From NCBI GenBank assembly GCA_012842045.1, contig DUTP01000002.1, positions 35,601 through 99,600 of the forward strand: a DNA stretch of 64,000 nt, read 5' to 3'. Origin of the DNA: Candidatus Dojkabacteria bacterium. GTDB lineage: Bacteria; Patescibacteriota; Dojkabacteria; SC72. Positions 2,807 through 54,217 of this stretch are shown here, one piece after another. Position 1 is the first letter of the stretch. The number at the start of each line of letters is the position of its first letter. A program made the position numbers and the translations under genes. The notes beneath the pieces were generated by a model. The model was not told where the DNA came from. It saw only the letters and a list, made by a program, of their open reading frames with translations, and did not search any database.

Positions 2807-5095
2807 ATGAATATAAATATCATAGGCATAATAACCTTGTTTTTTGCAGTGGTTAACATTGTTTTGGGTGTTTTTGTTCTGTTACGAAATCCGCGAAAAT
2901 CAAATAATATTGTCTATGCATTGAACGTCTTTTCTATTGCGGTATGGATTATCTTAACCTATTTTTATAATAATCCGATTGTATATTCTCCAAAGATATG
3001 GTTGAAGATGGTATACGTGTCTTCTTACGGTATGTTATTTACCCAATTACTTTTTGCTTATTATTTCCCAAGGAAAATTGAAGGAAAACTCATGTATTAC
3101 GTTATACCTATTGTTTTAACGTTAATTCCAAGTATATATGTTCTATTAGTTAAGAACTCTGTTATAGATAGTGTAGTACACTATCCAGACAGTTTTATTT
3201 CTGTAGCTAAAATGGGACCTGATTACTGGATATATACATTGCCGAATGTTTTAGGAATTCTTTTAATAGCACCATACTTCTTATTTAAAAGTAAAGCATT
3301 TACTGGATATGAAAAAGCTCAAGTAAGATTTTATATCATTGGTGCTCTGCTTATGATGGTTCCTTTAGTGATCGTAGACTATTTTATTCCTATAATGACA
3401 GGAGACACAAAGTATTTTGTTCTAGGACCACTATTTGCTATTCCTTTTACAATTGGAGCTGCATATCCTATTCTCCAAAGTAGATTTGTTAGGATTCCTG
3501 TCATTCTTGGTAACGTTGTTGTGTCTATATTAAAGTTAGTCTTTATATACTTTTCTCTGCTTTTCTTTACCGTTTTCTTAAAGTCTGGTTACTATTTAAA
3601 CTCGGACAGATTTCTTGCTATTTTTGTATTTGCACTATTACTCACTGCTTTCTATTTCTACATCTTCAAAAAAATGATGGATCTGCTACTTGATTTTATT
3701 GACAAAGCAAGAAAAAAAAGAGAGGTTGTAGAAAGGAATTTCTTGCAAGTTAGTGGTGTAGAGTTAACAATGGATAGAATTTTAGTTAATCTTCAAAGGA
3801 GTGTAAAAGCTTTATTCAATATCCCTAAATCTGGCATTTTGTTGTTTGACAAAGTTAGTTTTACAGAGAAATATTTTTCATACCCTCAATCAGGCGATTT
3901 CGCAATGAAAGATCTTTTGAATATTGTTCAATTTTGGAGCAAAGCAAGGCTTGGGAATATGATTGTGGCTGATGAGGTTAGAAAAGGGAATATTTTACAA
4001 GGAAGCGAAATACCTGAGAATATAATTCAGGTGTTAGATTTTATGGATAAACATAAGATCGCTGTACTATATCCGTTTAATACGAGGACTAGATTTAATG
4101 GTTTGCTAATTTTGGGTTATAGAGAGGATGGATATCCTTTAGCTTTGGATGAGATAGAGATACTAGAGAGAATGGTTGATAATACAAGTATTTCAATAGG
4201 AAGGGCAATATTATATGATGAAATTCAAGAATTTAGTGGCACTTTAGAACAACAAGTAAATGAACAAACACAAGAACTTCAACAAACAGTATTAGAACTA
4301 GAAGAAGCTAGAAGAAAAGAAAGAGATATGTTAGATATCATGGGTCATGAATTAAGAACACCTGCCACTGTGGTAAAACTAAATGCATCTCTGTTAGAAC
4401 AATATATACATAGTAATCCTAAAAACTTCAAAAAATACTTAGACAGGATAAAGAATAGTATTGAAAATGAAATAAGGTTGATAGACACATTACTCTCTAG
4501 TGCTAAGCTAGAAGGCGAAATGATGGACCTTAACAGAGAGAGAGTTTCTGTACCAGAACAGATAGAAACAGTTATACATGCATATGAATATCAAGCAGAA
4601 GCAAAAGAACTTAAGTTAATATCTAATATAGATGATGACACCAAAGATGTATTTGCAGATAGAGTGAGAGTAGTAGAGATAGTAGACAACCTGGTTAGTA
4701 ATGCTGTCAAATATACAGATGAAGGCTCTATCATTGTAAAAACAGAAAATGATGGTGAATATGTAAAGGTAAGTGTCACTGATACAGGAAAAGGTATCCC
4801 CGAGGAAGAAATACCTAAACTGGGTACTAAATTCCATAGGGTGGAAAAATATATTAATGAGGATAAAGAGAATCCAATAGTAAGTCCAGGAGGAACAGGT
4901 CTAGGTCTTTATGTTGTCTTTGCTTTAATAGAAATGATGGATGGTAAAATATGGGTAGAGAGTCAAGTCGGTAAGGGTACAACCTTCTTTTTCACACTAC
5001 CAGTATACAAAGGTCAAAGAGATGATATAGTGTATACCAAAGAAAAAGATATGTTTAGAAAATTTGGTCTTAAAGGAAGTAGAAAAGAAAAGTAA
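2807..5095 (+). CDS. membrane sensor histidine kinase (polytopic N-terminal domain, GAF-like middle, HisKA + HATPase_c)
   Basis: The N-terminal half has 8 or more hydrophobic segments. The H-box is MGHELRTPATVV. The G-box region is GTGLGLYVVFALIEMMDGKIWVESQVGKGTTFFFTLP. No response regulator gene lies in the window. Confidence 0.85.
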   Translation: MNINIIGIITLFFAVVNIVLGVFVLLRNPRKSNNIVYALNVFSIAVWIILTYFYNNPIVYSPKIWLKMVYVSSYGMLFTQLLFAYYFPRKIEGKLMYYVIPIVLTLIPSIYVLLVKNSVIDSVVHYPDSFISVAKMGPDYWIYTLPNVLGILLIAPYFLFKSKAFTGYEKAQVRFYIIGALLMMVPLVIVDYFIPIMTGDTKYFVLGPLFAIPFTIGAAYPILQSRFVRIPVILGNVVVSILKLVFIYFSLLFFTVFLKSGYYLNSDRFLAIFVFALLLTAFYFYIFKKMMDLLLDFIDKARKKREVVERNFLQVSGVELTMDRILVNLQRSVKALFNIPKSGILLFDKVSFTEKYFSYPQSGDFAMKDLLNIVQFWSKARLGNMIVADEVRKGNILQGSEIPENIIQVLDFMDKHKIAVLYPFNTRTRFNGLLILGYREDGYPLALDEIEILERMVDNTSISIGRAILYDEIQEFSGTLEQQVNEQTQELQQTVLELEEARRKERDMLDIMGHELRTPATVVKLNASLLEQYIHSNPKNFKKYLDRIKNSIENEIRLIDTLLSSAKLEGEMMDLNRERVSVPEQIETVIHAYEYQAEAKELKLISNIDDDTKDVFADRVRVVEIVDNLVSNAVKYTDEGSIIVKTENDGEYVKVSVTDTGKGIPEEEIPKLGTKFHRVEKYINEDKENPIVSPGGTGLGLYVVFALIEMMDGKIWVESQVGKGTTFFFTLPVYKGQRDDIVYTKEKDMFRKFGLKGSRKEK

Positions 5096-25579: not shown

Positions 25580-26431
25580 ATGTCTAGAATTAAAAAAGAC
25601 ACCATCCAAGCAAAAGGTTTTAACATTGAAATATATACCGAAGACTATAAGAATGATTACATTAGCCTAACTGATATAGCTAGGTATAAGAACTCTTACG
25701 AACCTAGTGATGTTATAAAAAACTGGTTAAGAAGAAAAGATACCATTGAGTTTCTAGGACTATGGGAGAGTTTGTACAACAAAAATTTCAATTCGGTCGA
25801 ATTCGACCGAATTAAATCTGAAGCAGGCAGTAATGCATTTACTCTTTCTCCTAAAAGATGGGTAGAAACATCAGGTGCGATAGGGATTGTTACTAAAGGT
25901 GGACGATATGGTAGAACTTTTGCTCATAAAGATATTGCTTTTAAATTTGCTTCTTGGATCTCAGCAGAATTTGAATTGTATATAATAAAGGATTATCAAA
26001 GACTAAAGGAAAGTGAAAATTCTAGATTGTCATTATCCTGGAATTTACACAGAGAAATTTCAAAAATCAACTATCGTATTCATACAGATGCAATTAAAGA
26101 ATACCTAGTAAAAGATTTAAGTGATGAACAATTGTCTTACAAATATGCAGATGAGGCAGATATGTTAAATGTTGCACTGTTTAACAAAAGAGCAAAAGAA
26201 TGGAGAGATGAAAACCCTAATCTAGAAGGTAATATTAGAGACTATGCAAGTTTAAATGAATTGTTAGTACTTGCGAATATGGAGAATTACAACGCTATCT
26301 TAATTGAAAAAGGTATTGAACAAAAAGAAAGAATGATTGAATTAAGAAGGCTGGCTAGAACACAATTTTTGTCTTTAGAGAGAAAAGGGAATAAGAGTAT
26401 AAGGAAGTTGTCAGGTAAAAATAGTAACTGA
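25580..26431 (+). CDS. KilA-N domain protein (phage/mobile-element associated)
   Basis: N-terminal FNIEIYTEDYKNDYISLTDIARYKN ... FASWISAEFELYIIKDY matches the KilA-N DNA-binding domain pattern. Confidence 0.75.
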   Translation: MSRIKKDTIQAKGFNIEIYTEDYKNDYISLTDIARYKNSYEPSDVIKNWLRRKDTIEFLGLWESLYNKNFNSVEFDRIKSEAGSNAFTLSPKRWVETSGAIGIVTKGGRYGRTFAHKDIAFKFASWISAEFELYIIKDYQRLKESENSRLSLSWNLHREISKINYRIHTDAIKEYLVKDLSDEQLSYKYADEADMLNVALFNKRAKEWRDENPNLEGNIRDYASLNELLVLANMENYNAILIEKGIEQKERMIELRRLARTQFLSLERKGNKSIRKLSGKNSN

Positions 26432-28744: not shown

Positions 28745-29269
28745 GTGCCCAAAAAGAAATATCCAACAATATATGCATTTATAGATAGTCAAAACCTCAA
28801 CTTAGGTACTTCAAAAGATATATACCATAGAGGTAAGATTATCTATCATGGTTGGAAGTTAGATATGAAAGGTTTTCATAGATATCTAACGGAAAAGCTA
28901 CGAGTTGACAAAGCTTTTTTGTTTCTAGGATATATTAGAAACAATGAAAAGATGTATCAGAAGTTTAGGGAATATGGATATGACATAATCTTTAAACCTA
29001 CTGTTAGAGGGCAAGGAGGAAAACCAAAAGGTAATATTGATGCAGAGTTAGTTCTTTACTCTTCAGCAATATTTTTTAAAGAATTTGATAAAGGAATTTT
29101 TGTTTCAGGGGATGGAGATTTTCATTGTTTGTATAAATTTATGAAAGAGAAAGGTAAACTACAATCGATCTTAATACCAAATAGATATACACAATCTAAA
29201 TTGCTTGAGGATTTTGAAGTGTATAAAAGACAATTATTTTATGATAAATCTTTGTTGGAGCAAAAATAA
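28745..29269 (+). CDS. NYN/LabA-like (PIN-fold) domain protein
   Basis: The AFIDSQNL ... NIDAELV ... FVSGDGDF acidic pattern matches the NYN/LabA domain. A GTG start is the only in-frame start after the upstream stop. Confidence 0.65.
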   Translation: MPKKKYPTIYAFIDSQNLNLGTSKDIYHRGKIIYHGWKLDMKGFHRYLTEKLRVDKAFLFLGYIRNNEKMYQKFREYGYDIIFKPTVRGQGGKPKGNIDAELVLYSSAIFFKEFDKGIFVSGDGDFHCLYKFMKEKGKLQSILIPNRYTQSKLLEDFEVYKRQLFYDKSLLEQK

Positions 29270-29465
29270 TGGGAGGCGTTACTCAGCACCTCGTAAGTGC
29301 AGGCTCGTATTCTCCCTCATGATTGTTACCATTATATCCTTTTCACTTATTTTCTACAACTTTTCTTTTTACAAATATATTAACTAATGGTTGGATAAAA
29401 TAGTTCATTATCTTGTAGCTAAGAAAGATTGCTAATACACAATTATTCTGTTATATTCTACTAAG

Positions 29466-30047
29466 ATGAGAAGGAATAAAAATAAGCTAAAAAACCTAAT
29501 AGTTTATATCCTTTCCGAATACAATAACTCAAACCTAACAGAGACCAAACTACAAAAACTACTCTACTTCTGTGATTTTGAATGCTACGAGATTAGTGGT
29601 AAATCAATAACAGGGTTTAAGTACAAGAAAAATCACTACGGTCCAACAATAATAGATTTAAGTGATTATCTCAAGGAGTTAAAAGAAGAGGGATATATTG
29701 AGATTATAGAAGGAGAAACAAGTTACGGTTCTCCTAAAAAAACATTTGCTCTTAAGAAAAGTATTGGAGATTTTAGAAAGGTGTTCACAGATTTAGAACT
29801 TAAAACAATTGATGATGTAAACAATGCATATGTAGGTCTTAAGCCTACAGAGATAAGTAAGTTATCTCATTCAGATTTTCCATATCTAGCAACCAATGAT
29901 AGGGAATATATAGACTATAATCTAGTTAAATATCGTGATACTGAGGAAGCAAATCAGGCAAAAGAAGACTATTCTGCTTTCTCATCTGGGGAGTTTTCCA
30001 ACATTGTAGGTAAATTTGCTAAAACTCTTCAGGATAGTGGAAATTAA
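29466..30047 (+). CDS. Panacea-domain (DUF4065, SocA/GepA-like) antitoxin-type protein
   Basis: N-terminal TKLQKLLYFCDFE ... HYGP matches the hallmark Panacea/DUF4065 motif (TKLqKLLYf...hGPv). Confidence 0.7.
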   Translation: MRRNKNKLKNLIVYILSEYNNSNLTETKLQKLLYFCDFECYEISGKSITGFKYKKNHYGPTIIDLSDYLKELKEEGYIEIIEGETSYGSPKKTFALKKSIGDFRKVFTDLELKTIDDVNNAYVGLKPTEISKLSHSDFPYLATNDREYIDYNLVKYRDTEEANQAKEDYSAFSSGEFSNIVGKFAKTLQDSGN

Positions 30048-42108: not shown

Positions 42109-42636
42109 ATGGCAACACCTAAGAAAACAAAAAAAGATGAATTAATTCCTGTACGTAGAAGTGTTCATGTTGTATATCTATCATGTCCTCACTGTAGTCA
42201 TGAGATGGATAGTATAAAGCTTTGTCCTAAATGTAATGAACCAATGAGAGTGATTGATGTTGTTGAGAAGTTTGGTGAGGAAGCAGATAGATTTCTTGAG
42301 AGGTTAGAAAAGAGAAAGAAAAAAGGTGAGGATGGTGAGAGTGTATCCATGACAGAGGAAGATGAAGATCTTGAGATGGATAAGGAGGAGCCAAACATTA
42401 TCCTTCTTGGTGTTGATGATGATACTCTTGATGATGGTATTGATCCTTTTGATAATACAGATGATGCATCTCTGGATGTTATTTTCCCCGATGAAGGAGG
42501 AGATTCTACTCAACATGTAGAAGATGCTTCTTTGGATGATGATTTAGCTAAAGCTTTGGAACAGTTGGATGCAGAAGAAGAGAATGTCACAGCTGAAGAT
42601 TTTGGATTTGAAGATGGTGAAATACCAGAACTTTAA
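42109..42636 (+). CDS. zinc-ribbon protein with a long acidic C-terminal tail
   Basis: CPHCSHEMDSIKLCPKCNE (C4 ribbon) followed by a D/E-rich low-complexity tail. Confidence 0.55.
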   Translation: MATPKKTKKDELIPVRRSVHVVYLSCPHCSHEMDSIKLCPKCNEPMRVIDVVEKFGEEADRFLERLEKRKKKGEDGESVSMTEEDEDLEMDKEEPNIILLGVDDDTLDDGIDPFDNTDDASLDVIFPDEGGDSTQHVEDASLDDDLAKALEQLDAEEENVTAEDFGFEDGEIPEL

Positions 42637-42645
42637 TTTATTCCA

Positions 42646-42815
42646 GGTTCCCTTATCAATTTCCCTTTATATACCAAGGACTATATCTGTTTTATGACGA
42701 TTAGTTAATATGCTATAAGTTGTAGAAGGAAAGCTACATATCTTCTAGTAAGTTAAATATTATCTCAAAAACTCATATAGTCCTTTCCTAGACAGTTAAA
42801 ATTGATAAGGGAACC
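42646..42815. repeat. 170-bp nested inverted-repeat element (possible structured RNA or MITE-like element)
   Basis: Outer perfect 15-bp IR GGTTCCCTTATCAAT (42646-42660) with ATTGATAAGGGAACC (42801-42815). Inner perfect 11-bp IR AAGGACTATAT (42676-42686) with ATATAGTCCTT (42775-42785). Confidence 0.5.
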
Positions 42816-42855
42816 GTGTTATAATAATTAATATCTAAACTAATTTCTAATAAGT

Positions 42856-43407
42856 ATGAAAAACATAATAGTAGCAGTAGTTGGTCTTTGTGGTGCAGGT
42901 AAATCAGAAGTTACGAATATGTTTGTTGAAAACAAATTTGAAAAGGTATACTTCGGAGATGTTACTTTTGATGAAATGAAGAAGAGGAATATGGAAATTA
43001 CTGAAGAGAATGAGAGAGTAATAAGAGAAGAACTTAGAGCAACAAATGATATGGCAATATATGCTAAGAAGAGTGAACCTAAGATAAAGAAAGCATATGA
43101 GGAAGGTAAAAATGTTGTAGTAGAAAGCCTCTACTCGTGGAGTGAGTATAAATATCTAAAGGAGATATACAAAGATAGTTTTAAGCTACTAGCAGTTGTA
43201 ACAGATAGAGACTTGAGAGCTGAGAGATTAAAAAACAGACCACATAGACCACTTACAGATGAGGAAGTTACACAGAGAGACTATGCAGAGATTGAAAATA
43301 TTGAAAAATCTGGTCCTATCGCCATTGCAGACCATTTTGTTTTAAACAATGGAACTTTTGAAGAGTTAAAGAAACAAGTTCAGGAATATATAGATTCCAT
43401 TATCTAA
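42856..43407 (+). CDS. P-loop nucleotide kinase (archaeal-type dephospho-CoA kinase / adenylate-kinase-like)
   Basis: Walker A VVGLCGAGKSEV, a lid-like RLKNRPHRPL region, 183 aa. Confidence 0.55.
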   Translation: MKNIIVAVVGLCGAGKSEVTNMFVENKFEKVYFGDVTFDEMKKRNMEITEENERVIREELRATNDMAIYAKKSEPKIKKAYEEGKNVVVESLYSWSEYKYLKEIYKDSFKLLAVVTDRDLRAERLKNRPHRPLTDEEVTQRDYAEIENIEKSGPIAIADHFVLNNGTFEELKKQVQEYIDSII

Positions 43408-43411
43408 GTTT

Positions 43412-43726
43412 CTAAACAATAGGCTTTTTAAGAAGTTCTAGTATTACTTCAAAATTGTCATCAGGTGAACTCCTTACTCTGTGTTTGTAGCCACAACTTT
43501 CGCATCTGTAATATATTCTAAAGATGTCTTTCTTAACTTCGGCAGTAATAGGTTTCATCAATCCTTCACATTTACACTCTCTATCACCAGGATTAATATC
43601 AACATGTTTAGAGTAAAGACATTTTGGACAATGATCGGTATACCCATCTCCTTTAACGGGAGTATTGCAATTAGCACATATGAAGTCTTCTTTTGTAGAT
43701 TTAAATTTCTTACTCATAACACACAA
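43412..43726 (-). CDS. RNHCP-domain zinc-ribbon protein
   Basis: FICANCNTPVKGDGYTDHCPKCLYSKHVD ... CESCGYKH matches the RNHCP domain pattern. Confidence 0.6.
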   Translation of the reverse strand: MCVMSKKFKSTKEDFICANCNTPVKGDGYTDHCPKCLYSKHVDINPGDRECKCEGLMKPITAEVKKDIFRIYYRCESCGYKHRVRSSPDDNFEVILELLKKPIV

Positions 43727-43771
43727 TTATACAACAGATGCCTTTACCATTCTTCTAAGGTATAATATCGC

Positions 43772-44953
43772 ATGTATAATCTACACAACAAATTTCCCAA
43801 GGTCGCAGTTGTAGCAGACCAGATGACATCTTTTGGTGGTGCAGATAGGGAGATGTATTCAATGTTGAAAGTATTCCCAGATGCAGATATATATACAGTT
43901 CTTTTCTACAAAGAGAAATATCCAACTCTGAAAAACAAAGTATATACATCATTTGTACAAAAGTGGGTTAAGGTGTTTGGGAAGAAATTCCATAGACATC
44001 TTAAAGTATTAAATCCTTTTGCATATGAAGGATTCGATTTAAGGGGATATGATTTAGTAATTAGTATATCAGCAGGTCCAGCCAAGTCAGTGATTACAGG
44101 AGTAGACCAACCACACCTAGCTATGGTTATGACACCACCTAGAAGTCTTTGGGATAATGAGTTGAATGTAAGGGGTTCTAAACTTAAATGGATTTACAAA
44201 CCTCTTTCCCATATTCTTAACACATACCTAAGAGTTTGGGATGTTAGTATTGCTAAAAGGGTTGACTACTGGAGTGCAAATTCAAAATTTATTGCACAGA
44301 AGATAAAGAAGACATATGGAGTAGATGCACGAGTAATATATCCAGGTGTAGAAGAGAAATATTTTAAACAATTAAAAGAAACGAAGGAAGGTGAAAGATT
44401 AATTAAAGATACAAAGGAGAAATTTTTCATTCCCGATGATTTTGTTCTAGTTGTTTCAAGGCTATATGACTACAAGAGAGTAGATTGGGCAATACGATCA
44501 TGTATTGAAAGCGGAGATAATTTAGTAATTGTAGGTGAAGGTCCAGATAGAAGATATTTAGATAAAGTTGCAAGAGGGTATAAAAACATACAGTTTTTGG
44601 GATTCATTAAGGATGAAGAAGTTCAAGCATTGTACAGTATGGCTAAGGTTTTGCTCTTTTGTGGAATTGAAGATTTTGGTTTAGTACCAGTTGAAGCTAT
44701 GGCAAGTGGAACACCAATATTTGCATACGGTTATGGTGGTGTATTGGAAACTGTTAAGAAGGGTGTAACTGGAGAGTTTTTCATAAACGAAGAAGAATTG
44801 GTACAGTTACTTAAGAATTATAATAAAAGGGGGTATAATGAGAAAGAGATTATAGAGCATGCGCAGACCTTTAATGAAAAGAGTTTCTTAATTAATTTTA
44901 CTAACTACCTTAAAGAAATCTATGAAAAAGAAAGGACAAGGAGACAGGGTTAA
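43772..44953 (+). CDS. GT4-family glycosyltransferase
   Basis: EDFGLVPVEAMASGTPIFAY is the canonical GT4 E-x7-E motif. Confidence 0.8.
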   Translation: MYNLHNKFPKVAVVADQMTSFGGADREMYSMLKVFPDADIYTVLFYKEKYPTLKNKVYTSFVQKWVKVFGKKFHRHLKVLNPFAYEGFDLRGYDLVISISAGPAKSVITGVDQPHLAMVMTPPRSLWDNELNVRGSKLKWIYKPLSHILNTYLRVWDVSIAKRVDYWSANSKFIAQKIKKTYGVDARVIYPGVEEKYFKQLKETKEGERLIKDTKEKFFIPDDFVLVVSRLYDYKRVDWAIRSCIESGDNLVIVGEGPDRRYLDKVARGYKNIQFLGFIKDEEVQALYSMAKVLLFCGIEDFGLVPVEAMASGTPIFAYGYGGVLETVKKGVTGEFFINEEELVQLLKNYNKRGYNEKEIIEHAQTFNEKSFLINFTNYLKEIYEKERTRRQG

Positions 44954-53901: not shown

Positions 53902-53946
53902 GTTGGTGTGTATTAACAAAATTCAAAATCTCGAAAGGAGGATGAT

Positions 53947-54054
53947 ATGACAACTATGACAACCCAAATCATTGGTGTGGCAATATTGTTTTTATTATGG
54001 ATTACCACAATAGTGGTAGTTCTTAAGTTACAAAATAAAAAAGAATAAAGTCCT
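53947..54054 (+). CDS. unannotated 35-aa single-TM peptide (MTTMTTQIIGVAILFLLWITTIVVVLKLQNKKE)
   Basis: Near-perfect SD AAAGGAGG 6 nt upstream of the ATG, an extended -10 upstream, a hydrophobic core and a KK-rich C-terminus. Not in the ORF track because it is short. Confidence 0.45.
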
Positions 54055-54217
54055 TATTGTTAATACACCCCGAAAAGCTAAATCTTTGTACATATTTTTG
54101 TATAAGTCTTTTTAGTCTGAGTAGGGTTTCTTTCTTTTAATATTGTTCATATCCCTTAAAATTGATATATTTAAATAGTAGTGAAGGTTATGTATATAAC
54201 TTTTTACATAAATAACT

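Follow-up and report, generated by a model that had tools for sequence, protein, structure and literature searches.

A discrete 170-nt inverted-repeat element occupies different intergenic sites in Dojkabacteria and resembles Correia/ERIC-like hairpin modules

The locus and its inverted repeats

The element that we describe here lies in the genome of a Candidatus Dojkabacteria bacterium, a member of the candidate phyla radiation (CPR), within a 64-kb stretch of DNA of ~31% G+C that was analysed as a whole and that we refer to as the window. It is 170 nt long, runs from position 42646 to 42815 on the + strand, and sits in an intergenic region (42637-42855) between two + strand genes. The upstream gene (42109-42636) encodes a zinc-ribbon protein of 175 amino acids with an acidic tail. 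It shares 99% identity with a protein of Candidatus Dojkabacteria found in metagenomes of anaerobic digesters and sewage, on contigs of up to 763 kb, and belongs to a family that we saw only in Dojkabacteria-type sequences. The downstream gene (42856-43407) encodes a P-loop AAA_18 kinase-like protein of 183 amino acids, as assigned by a Pfam scan. The stop codon of the zinc-ribbon gene ends at 42636 and is separated from the element by 9 nt, one fewer than the 10 nt given in a preliminary description of the locus, which had correctly placed the other end of the element 40 nt before the ATG of the next gene (42856). Across 27 proteins encoded at 25.5-56 kb of the window, the Pfam scan returned sugar-nucleotide and glycosyltransferase genes, SecA, LiaF-like, RecO, NDK, UDG and others; no transposase, integrase, reverse transcriptase or Cas protein was found among these 27, nor any tyrosine or serine recombinase among the proteins scanned at 25.5-56 kb.

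Two concentric perfect inverted repeats bound the element. The outer one, GGTTCCCTTATCAATTT (42646-42662) and AAATTGATAAGGGAACC (42799-42815), had been located correctly before but with a length of 15 bp, and is in fact 17 nt long; the inner one, AAGGACTATAT (42676-42686) and ATATAGTCCTT (42775-42785), has the 11 nt originally reported. The further complementarity of GTTTT and AAAAC, said to bound a core of about 90 nt, was found at 42689-42693 and 42768-42772, with 88 nt separating the inner arms. When perfect, non-overlapping inverted repeats of 17 nt were sought within 400 nt, the window gave one and 200 Markov-simulated 64-kb sequences gave none, which, together with the z-score of -7.75 for the fold reported below, confirms that the element is real and beyond chance. 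Its coding capacity is nil, the longest internal open reading frames (ORFs) on either strand having 2-8 codons. Full-length copies span 157-170 nt, and the arm consensus across copies is GGTTMCCTTRTCAATTT. Another repeat in the window, at 53905-54071, does enclose an ORF, unlike the element.

Folded as + strand RNA, the 170 nt are predicted to form a single interrupted rod of ~57 base pairs, in which a helix P1 (17 bp) is followed by a 13 x 13 internal loop, a helix P2 (11 bp), an interrupted helix P3, a core helix P4 and an apical hairpin. The predicted energy was -58.1 kcal/mol compared to -29.1 ± 3.7 kcal/mol for shuffled sequences (z = -7.75; 0 of 200 shuffles matched it). The - strand RNA reached -55.5 kcal/mol (z = -5.8), so that stable structure beyond the arms is predicted for both strands, and the single-stranded DNA also folds well (z = -7.0). 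P1 is formed by the outer arms, and 17 of its 17 pairs are kept in all full-length copies. Both arms carry an outward-facing TTGATA or TTGACA located 8 nt from the tip of the element: In the window, the 3' arm contains TTGATA, and the reverse complement of the 5' arm likewise presents a -35-like TTGATA.

The internal loop is made up of CCCTTTATATACC (42663-42675) and TCCTAGACAGTTA (42786-42798), each 8/13 identical to the copy of a relative (locus L032; loci of relatives are given by such numbers), whose loop is smaller; its size is 13 x 13 in the window, 12 x 12 in L006, a sister strain, and ~8 x 7 in the minimum-energy fold of L032. P2 corresponds to the inner repeat and was recovered by repeat search, fold and alignment on both its strands. 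In P3, an interrupted 5' strand (GTTTT.TGA.GAT, 42689-42701; from the fold) pairs with a 3' strand (ATC TCA AAAAC, 42760-42772; from fold and alignment). The most conserved blocks of the element form P4: The 5' strand (ACGATTAGTTAAT.TGCTA..AAG, 42697-42719), (near-)invariant in the window, L006, L032 and L037, pairs with the 3' strand (CTTCTAGTAAGTTAAA, 42742-42757) via two conserved G·U pairs. The apical hairpin (TGTAG-AAGGAAAG-CTACA, 42721-42738) is variable, and it is missing in the L032 and L037 copies.

A promoter-like site of the downstream gene overlaps the end of the element (42796-42825, + strand; consensus match 10/12, TG present), with a -35-like TTAAAA inside the element and an extended -10 box, TGTTATAAT, at 42817-42825, which starts 2 nt past the end of the element. 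The same box recurs ~20 nt 3' of the element in L032, where it lies 5 nt before the ATG of a glycosyltransferase gene, an arrangement shared by the window's own glycosyltransferase gene (TATAAT at 43761-43766, ATG at 43772). In the L037 lineage, the arm yields TTGATA-17 nt-TATAAT-5 nt-ATG of a HAD hydrolase gene, and across contexts the distance from the end of the element to the -10 box is 1-20 nt. As promoter-like consensus matches showed no enrichment in this AT-rich region, these statements on promoters are weak and serve as leads only. A role as terminator was rejected, the U-tract being missing. Canonical terminator-like sites in this region numbered 5 versus 8.5 ± 3.4 in shuffles, i.e., they were not enriched, and hence they give no baseline for judging a terminator role of the element.

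Copies in related Dojkabacteria

Upon comparison with relatives, we found the element in three different genomic contexts. In the window and in sister strains, it lies between the zinc-ribbon and the kinase genes. In L032, it follows the kinase stop codon without a gap, has the same orientation and precedes a glycosyltransferase gene; this copy was 71% identical over 173 nt (E = 1e-20) by blastn against the loci of the relatives, and L033 carries a copy of the same type, with the contig ending inside it. In the third context, found in L037 and L043-L048, the element is placed between a cupin gene and the HAD hydrolase gene, both on the opposite strand. Here, identity to the other copies is 82-87% over the first 100 nt; the 3' half is diverged, and no rod is left (z about -1.9). 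In all three contexts, similarity starts at the first base of the 5' arm, and in both full-length copies it stops at the last base of the 3' arm, while the flanks are unrelated (window ...TTATTCCAG / GTGTTATAA...; L032 ...CAACTAA / CCCTCTC...; L037 ...TTGATTGT / degenerate). The element is a discrete unit whose homology stops precisely where the repeats end, and related Dojkabacteria carry it at different intergenic sites. We found no direct repeat of 2-10 nt, as a target-site duplication would leave, at any of the three sites.

The element is absent from the syntenic interval, 2.5-6 kb around the same genes, in six other lineages (L001-L005, L016, L027-L031 and L049-L051). Lineages with a zinc-ribbon protein of 61-76% identity have something else in the zinc-ribbon-to-kinase interval: ClpP in L001, L029 and L049, ClpP and a small ORF in L028, and two small ORFs in L016 and L027. 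The interval is empty in L003 and L032 (a gap of 17-22 nt), and in L005 the glycosyltransferase gene directly abuts the zinc-ribbon gene. The element is not a conserved feature of the zinc-ribbon/kinase site. In L027, GGTAAC and a pyrimidine tract upstream of the kinase promoter might be what is left of a 3' arm, but this was too weak to retain, and a covariance model of the element was blank there.

Within the species, a single variant, identical in ten contigs from different samples, is found at the same site, between the zinc-ribbon and kinase genes. This variant differs from the window by 11 substitutions in 170 nt, a divergence that is not above that of the flanking genes (97% and 92% nucleotide identity). 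Its arms are unchanged, P1 grows to 18 bp, and two changes convert a 2 x 2 mismatch adjoining P2/P3 into pairs (ATATGTGTTTT / AAAACACATAT); three of its transitions lead to G·U pairs on the + strand and two to A·C. The variant folds at -56.8 kcal/mol, compared to -45.5 ± 5.5 kcal/mol for random placement of the same changes (reached in 16 of 500 trials). Nine same-species contigs together show 2 segregating sites in the zinc-ribbon gene, 0 in the intergenic region of 224 nt and 56 in the kinase gene, with polymorphism jumping from 0 to ~10 per 100 nt just 3' of the element, from 8 nt into the kinase gene. A contig whose zinc-ribbon protein is 90% identical ends in the first 12 nt of the element at the same junction. 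Four short metagenome contigs (L026, L033, L046 and L048) end inside the element. An apparent 146-nt insertion in L011 proved to be a scaffold gap of Ns.

Within the reach of our searches, the element is present in a single copy per genome, since the window holds no second match and the representative genome a single one by a strict arm pattern, which could miss diverged or truncated copies elsewhere. Allowing for up to 3 mismatches, the 17-mer arm matched only the two arms of the element in the window, and the covariance model, built from the homologues and run with filters off, found no further copy in the 64 kb; on 21 loci from relatives, it detected nothing beyond the known copies. Scanning one genome per GTDB species for paired 11-mer arm cores 130-160 nt apart gave four matches, of which one was real: the Dojkabacteria representative genome, with a single copy on a 645-kb contig. 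We consider the matches in Bacteroidota, Prolixibacteraceae and Lachnospiraceae to be chance, as their likeness is confined to the 11-mers, without internal similarity. The additional copies that would mark a miniature transposable element with inverted repeats (MITE), a reading raised in the preliminary description, are accordingly absent from the window and, by the strict paired-arm pattern, from the representative genome.

Searches in other collections returned little. An Rfam 15 scan of the whole window at the gathering threshold yielded one tRNA only and no 6S RNA, leaving nothing above threshold for the element, and a search at E <= 10 on the element and its L032 copy found nothing meaningful, again including 6S. 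The best Rfam match of the element, the plant MIR6217 hairpin model with 18-27 bits against a threshold of 110, is a generic match to a long AU-rich hairpin. By blastn, the element had no match in phage and plasmid collections, and scans of viral contigs with the 17-mer arm, the core blocks and the 5' core block gave single chance matches only, without similarity beyond the pattern and in some cases in coding regions of giant viruses. Scanning metagenomes for the pair of core blocks that are most conserved recovered one real match, L037; the window's species is missing from that collection, such that absence there means little. Our literature search on 6S and other structured RNAs and on non-coding or mobile elements in Patescibacteria/CPR found nothing relevant.

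Maintenance of the hairpin and its core

The L032 copy permits a direct comparison of hairpin stability after substantial divergence. It folds at about -56 kcal/mol (-55.8 to -56.8; z = -7.4), and when we gave the window sequence the 34 substitutions and the 15-nt deletion of L032 at random positions, the resulting sequences folded at -29.0 ± 4.9 kcal/mol. None of 500 such simulated mutants reached the stability of L032, and on these grounds we conclude that the long hairpin of the element is maintained by selection. The helices change in step with this. P1 is a perfect 19-bp helix in L032 (5' arm GGTTACCTTGTCAATTTCT), and its two differences from the window in each arm are exactly compensatory (C-G to A-U and A-U to G-C); by a simple count, the chance of two 3'-arm changes hitting the partner positions with the complementary base is ~1 in 1,200. 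One more pair, in P3, has changed on both sides (G-C to A-U). In an alignment of four sequences, 95.5% of cells are paired compared to 37-50% when the partners are slid, and three pairs have changed on both sides compared to 0-1. A shuffle control of the alignment was not significant (42-53 of 500), owing to the small number of sequences, with three full-length sequence types only. The reading as a structured RNA, one possibility in the preliminary description, is supported as far as the hairpin goes: Its stability extends beyond the arms, and compensatory changes preserve it in the homologue of 71% identity.

Which strand would carry the function can be approached through the asymmetry of the fold. 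For the three full-length copies, the + and - strands fold at -56.7/-53.5, -56.8/-51.1 and -55.8/-48.1 kcal/mol, and the + strand has 2, 5 and 5 G·U pairs versus 0, 2 and 2 A·C mismatches. Two G·U pairs belong to the invariant core (alignment columns 65-108, U·G in 4/4 sequences; columns 68-105, G·U in three and A-U in L037). Since the + strand folds better and G·U pairs exceed A·C, the active form may be an RNA from the + strand, the strand of the flanking genes; with ~7 versus 2-3 independent events, the bias is suggestive only. The same positions bear on the earlier proposal of a protein-binding palindrome. Taken as purely a matter of DNA, this is now the least supported of the three original readings, as those non-Watson-Crick positions that are conserved show G·T on the + strand and not on the other.

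Conservation is highest in the interior of the element, at ACGATTAGTTAAT.TGCTA and TCTAGTAAGTTAAA, where 35/38 core positions are identical to L032. The arms follow with 30/34, the loop is the least alike (8 of 13 positions per side, as given above), and the apex is lost. A core that is more conserved than the arms would be unusual for a MITE and suggests a sequence-specific partner.

Candidate identities of the element

The reading that we favour is that of a Correia/ERIC-like insertable hairpin module that would be co-transcribed with the upstream gene, work in cis as a hairpin at the 3' end or for processing, and add to an adjacent promoter. We give it a probability of roughly 0.45, and prefer it because it combines the behaviour of an insertable unit with a constrained hairpin and core. 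The + strand of the element would be transcribed as the 3' end of the upstream mRNA, as we infer from its start shortly after a co-directional stop codon in two independent contexts, i.e., with two independent upstream genes (9 nt in the window, 14 nt in L006, 0 nt in L032). On that transcript, the ~57-bp rod, closed by a perfect helix of 17-19 bp, would act in cis, where it could block 3' exonucleases or be a processing site for a double-strand-specific nuclease of the RNase III type; either effect would make the upstream transcript independent of the gene that follows. In the DNA itself, the outward TTGAYA hexamers at the ends of the element may supply the -35 half of an adjacent promoter.

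Precedents for such a module exist in other bacteria. The Correia elements (CREE) of about 70-157 bp are intergenic, occur in >100 copies per genome, consist of an inverted repeat with a conserved directional core, and generate promoters at their ends; where transcribed with symmetrical ends, their long duplex is cleaved or bound by RNase III (PMC2649163). Like the CREE/NEMIS of Neisseria, the element is non-coding, has symmetrical ends, a conserved directional core and outward TTGAYA hexamers, and abuts -10 boxes. CREE make a TA target duplication; the element differs from them in having none, in being single-copy where this is testable, and in residing in a CPR bacterium, and the likeness described here is one of features. 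ERIC/IRU, RUP, BOX and REP/REPIN sequences are palindromes, imperfect and some tens of bp to ~130 bp long, of intergenic regions that are transcribed; as RNA they are reported to form hairpins and to change how stable the flanking mRNA is (reviewed in PMC2229807, PMC3184786, PMC10969869). A REPIN is made up of two short REP hairpins, which RAYT transposases move (PMC3337134). Unlike the multi-copy ERIC/REP families, the element forms one long rod, is single-copy, and has no associated transposase that we could see.

A different and rather unlikely explanation is that the element is a free-standing gene for a stable small RNA, whose closing helix would protect the ends and whose invariant core hairpin would bind a protein; in one version, it would be 6S-like, imitating an open promoter and tying up RNA polymerase. 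Its differing locations would then reflect a rearranged variable gene islet rather than transposition. The overall architecture is in keeping with such an RNA: At 157-170 nt, the element is a rod in which a 13 x 13 loop separates the 17-bp closing helix from the long helix further in, and 6S RNA (SsrS; ~150-200 nt) is likewise rod-like, with an internal bubble that parts its closing helix from a long inner one. The compensatory evolution and the + strand G·U pairs are in line with this, as are the absence of segregating sites from the 224-nt intergenic region of nine same-species contigs, the lack of any 6S or other Rfam RNA besides one tRNA in the window, and the survival of the invariant core ACGATTAGTTAAT / TCTAGTAAGTTAAA even in the rod-less L037 copy. 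However, the internal loop appears to be conserved neither in sequence nor in size, and no Rfam family, 6S or other, matched even at E <= 10. No upstream sequence, and hence no promoter, travels with the element, given that homology begins at the first arm base in all three contexts. It is moreover patchy among close relatives, missing within 2.5-6 kb of the same genes in six lineages and decayed in a seventh. Lastly, a perfect helix of 17-19 bp is an expected target of double-strand-specific nucleases and not a typical end of a stable RNA. The more specific proposal of an undescribed stable regulatory RNA of CPR, rod-shaped and 6S-like or protein-sequestering, with its invariant core hairpin as a specific site for binding a protein, that is accessory and horizontally exchangeable within a hypervariable islet, appears improbable to us.

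Comparably doubtful is the notion of a functionless MITE relic, in which the hairpin would be a by-product of a palindromic origin and would owe its perfection to having arisen recently or to repair templated by the hairpin (template switching), not to selection on an RNA. The behaviour of the element agrees with mobility, with three contexts, exact termini, and empty sites in relatives: It has terminal inverted repeats at its exact ends, is small and non-coding, is patchy and differs in site among relatives, and has one decayed copy. The contigs that end inside it (L026, L033, L046 and L048) do so as is seen at repeated or variant sequence, and its arms may resemble the ends of the IS6 family in geometry (GGTTC..., where a -35-like hexamer faces outward at 7-8 nt from the tip). 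We do not file it as a MITE, because neither further copies, looked for across the window and by the strict arm pattern in the representative genome, nor a target-site duplication at the three sites were found; nor did any transposase turn up nearby (25.5-56 kb). Against a mere relic, furthermore, the whole rod and not the arms alone keeps its stability after 29% divergence (0/500 controls), the interior is more conserved than the arms, and the divergence of the element within the species does not exceed that of its flanking genes.

That the element acts as double-stranded or extruded DNA, as a recombination or protein-binding site at the edge of a hypervariable gene islet comparable to attC or another recombinase target, is very unlikely: It lies at the left edge of the islet (from the zinc-ribbon to the glycosyltransferase genes) in the window and at the right edge in L032, the islet varies in content per lineage (empty in L005; ClpP, NYN, kinase, RNHCP or small ORFs elsewhere), same-species polymorphism rises sharply just 3' of it, and its single strand folds well as DNA, but its ends do not fit the attC core sites RYYYAAC / GTTRRRY, no tyrosine or serine recombinase is encoded at 25.5-56 kb, the L037 context is unrelated to the islet, and the core mismatches are G·T on one strand only, tolerated in RNA and giving an imperfect palindrome in DNA (8/11). 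An integron attC site, which is 57-141 nt long and works as a folded single strand, is likewise an imperfect inverted repeat directly after a stop codon in a variable gene array; the element is longer, its ends (GGTTCCC... / ...GGGAACC) lack the core consensus, and no integrase is found among the 27 neighbouring proteins.

Several other identities were rejected in turn. The neighbours, an AAA_18 kinase in the window and a glycosyltransferase in L032, do not include a reverse transcriptase domain as expected of a retron msr-msd; a type I toxin mRNA with a 5'-3' fold-back would need a small hydrophobic ORF and its ribosome-binding site enclosed by the closing helix, and the element has no ORF; and partner genes or motifs are missing for a CRISPR reading. 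An SRP RNA, considered for the apical GAAGGAAAGC, was dismissed because L032 and L037 lack the apex and Rfam gave no SRP match, and an IHF site (WATCAANNNNTTR) in the arms did not fit on inspection.

Returning to the Correia/ERIC-like module, the element would differ from the known kind in its single copy, its lack of target duplication, its long-term compensatory maintenance and its occurrence in a CPR genome. No long-standing question depends on it, and its main practical value is in annotation, where it accounts for a 220-nt intergenic gap and a promoter-proximal palindrome. It also provides a defined candidate RNA for metatranscriptomes of anaerobic digesters. For the biology of these bacteria, it suggests that streamlined genomes of 0.65-0.76 Mb tolerate, and perhaps use, Correia/ERIC-like elements.

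Variation around the inverted-repeat element

The 170-nt inverted-repeat element lies next to a stretch of high polymorphism. Among the same-species contigs that carry it at this site (L006-L015), which are near-identical elsewhere, the 552 nt of the AAA_18 kinase gene (positions 3753-4304, corresponding to window 42856-43407) contained 56 segregating sites, which formed mosaic blocks. In the same contigs, we counted 2 segregating sites in the 528 nt of the zinc-ribbon gene and 0 in the intergenic region, such that the rise in polymorphism starts just downstream of the element. This jump suggests recombination tracts.

A further observation concerns the degenerate copy of the element between the cupin and HAD genes. 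Upon comparing two lineages with this arrangement, L037 and L043, we found a 352-nt block (L037 851-1202) that was 100% identical and that spans the degenerate element and the ends of the adjoining genes, while the flanking sequence differed at 3-18 positions per 100 nt. Such identity points to either recent exchange or strong constraint. Separately, four short metagenome contigs (L026, L033, L046, and L048) end within the element. The samples concerned could contain further variants or copies of it, or the coverage could simply have been low.

The zinc-ribbon gene and the variable islet behind it

The zinc-ribbon gene (window 42109-42636) encodes a protein with a long acidic tail, for which we obtained no above-threshold Pfam family; in one source, it is labelled “DNA-directed RNA poly...”. 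Its homologues were found in Dojkabacteria-type sequences only, usually with secA adjoining. From this gene to the first glycosyltransferase gene (window 42637-43771) runs a gene islet that is hypervariable in Dojkabacteria, as seen by comparison with loci of relatives (L001-L005, L016, L027-L032, and L049-L051): It was empty in L005 and held varying sets of AAA_18 kinase, RNHCP, ClpP, NYN, and small ORFs in the other lineages.

Toxin-like features elsewhere in the window

A second inverted-repeat element of ~167 nt (window 53905-54071) is closed by 15-nt arms, GGTGTGTATTAACAA / TTGTTAATACACCCC. Between the arms lie a GGAGG ribosome-binding site and a hydrophobic 33-aa ORF, MTTMTTQIIGVAILFLLWITTIVVVLKLQNKKE (53947-54048, + strand). 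The element resembles a type I toxin mRNA whose 5' and 3' ends pair by folding back; its + strand fold has a z of -3.6. Midway through the dTDP-rhamnose gene cluster, two neighbouring genes encode an NYN-domain protein and a SocA/Panacea antitoxin-like protein, with a KilA-N domain gene just upstream (window 28745-30047 and 25580-26431 for the three). The NYN and SocA/Panacea genes appear to be a toxin-antitoxin or defence pair that was inserted there.

TATAAT boxes near start codons

In several genes, only 5 nt separate a TATAAT box from the ATG, as for the glycosyltransferase gene in the window (43761-43774) and in a relative (L032 3229-3248), and for the HAD gene (L037 925-950, - strand). 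This spacing suggests that leaderless mRNAs occur in this lineage.
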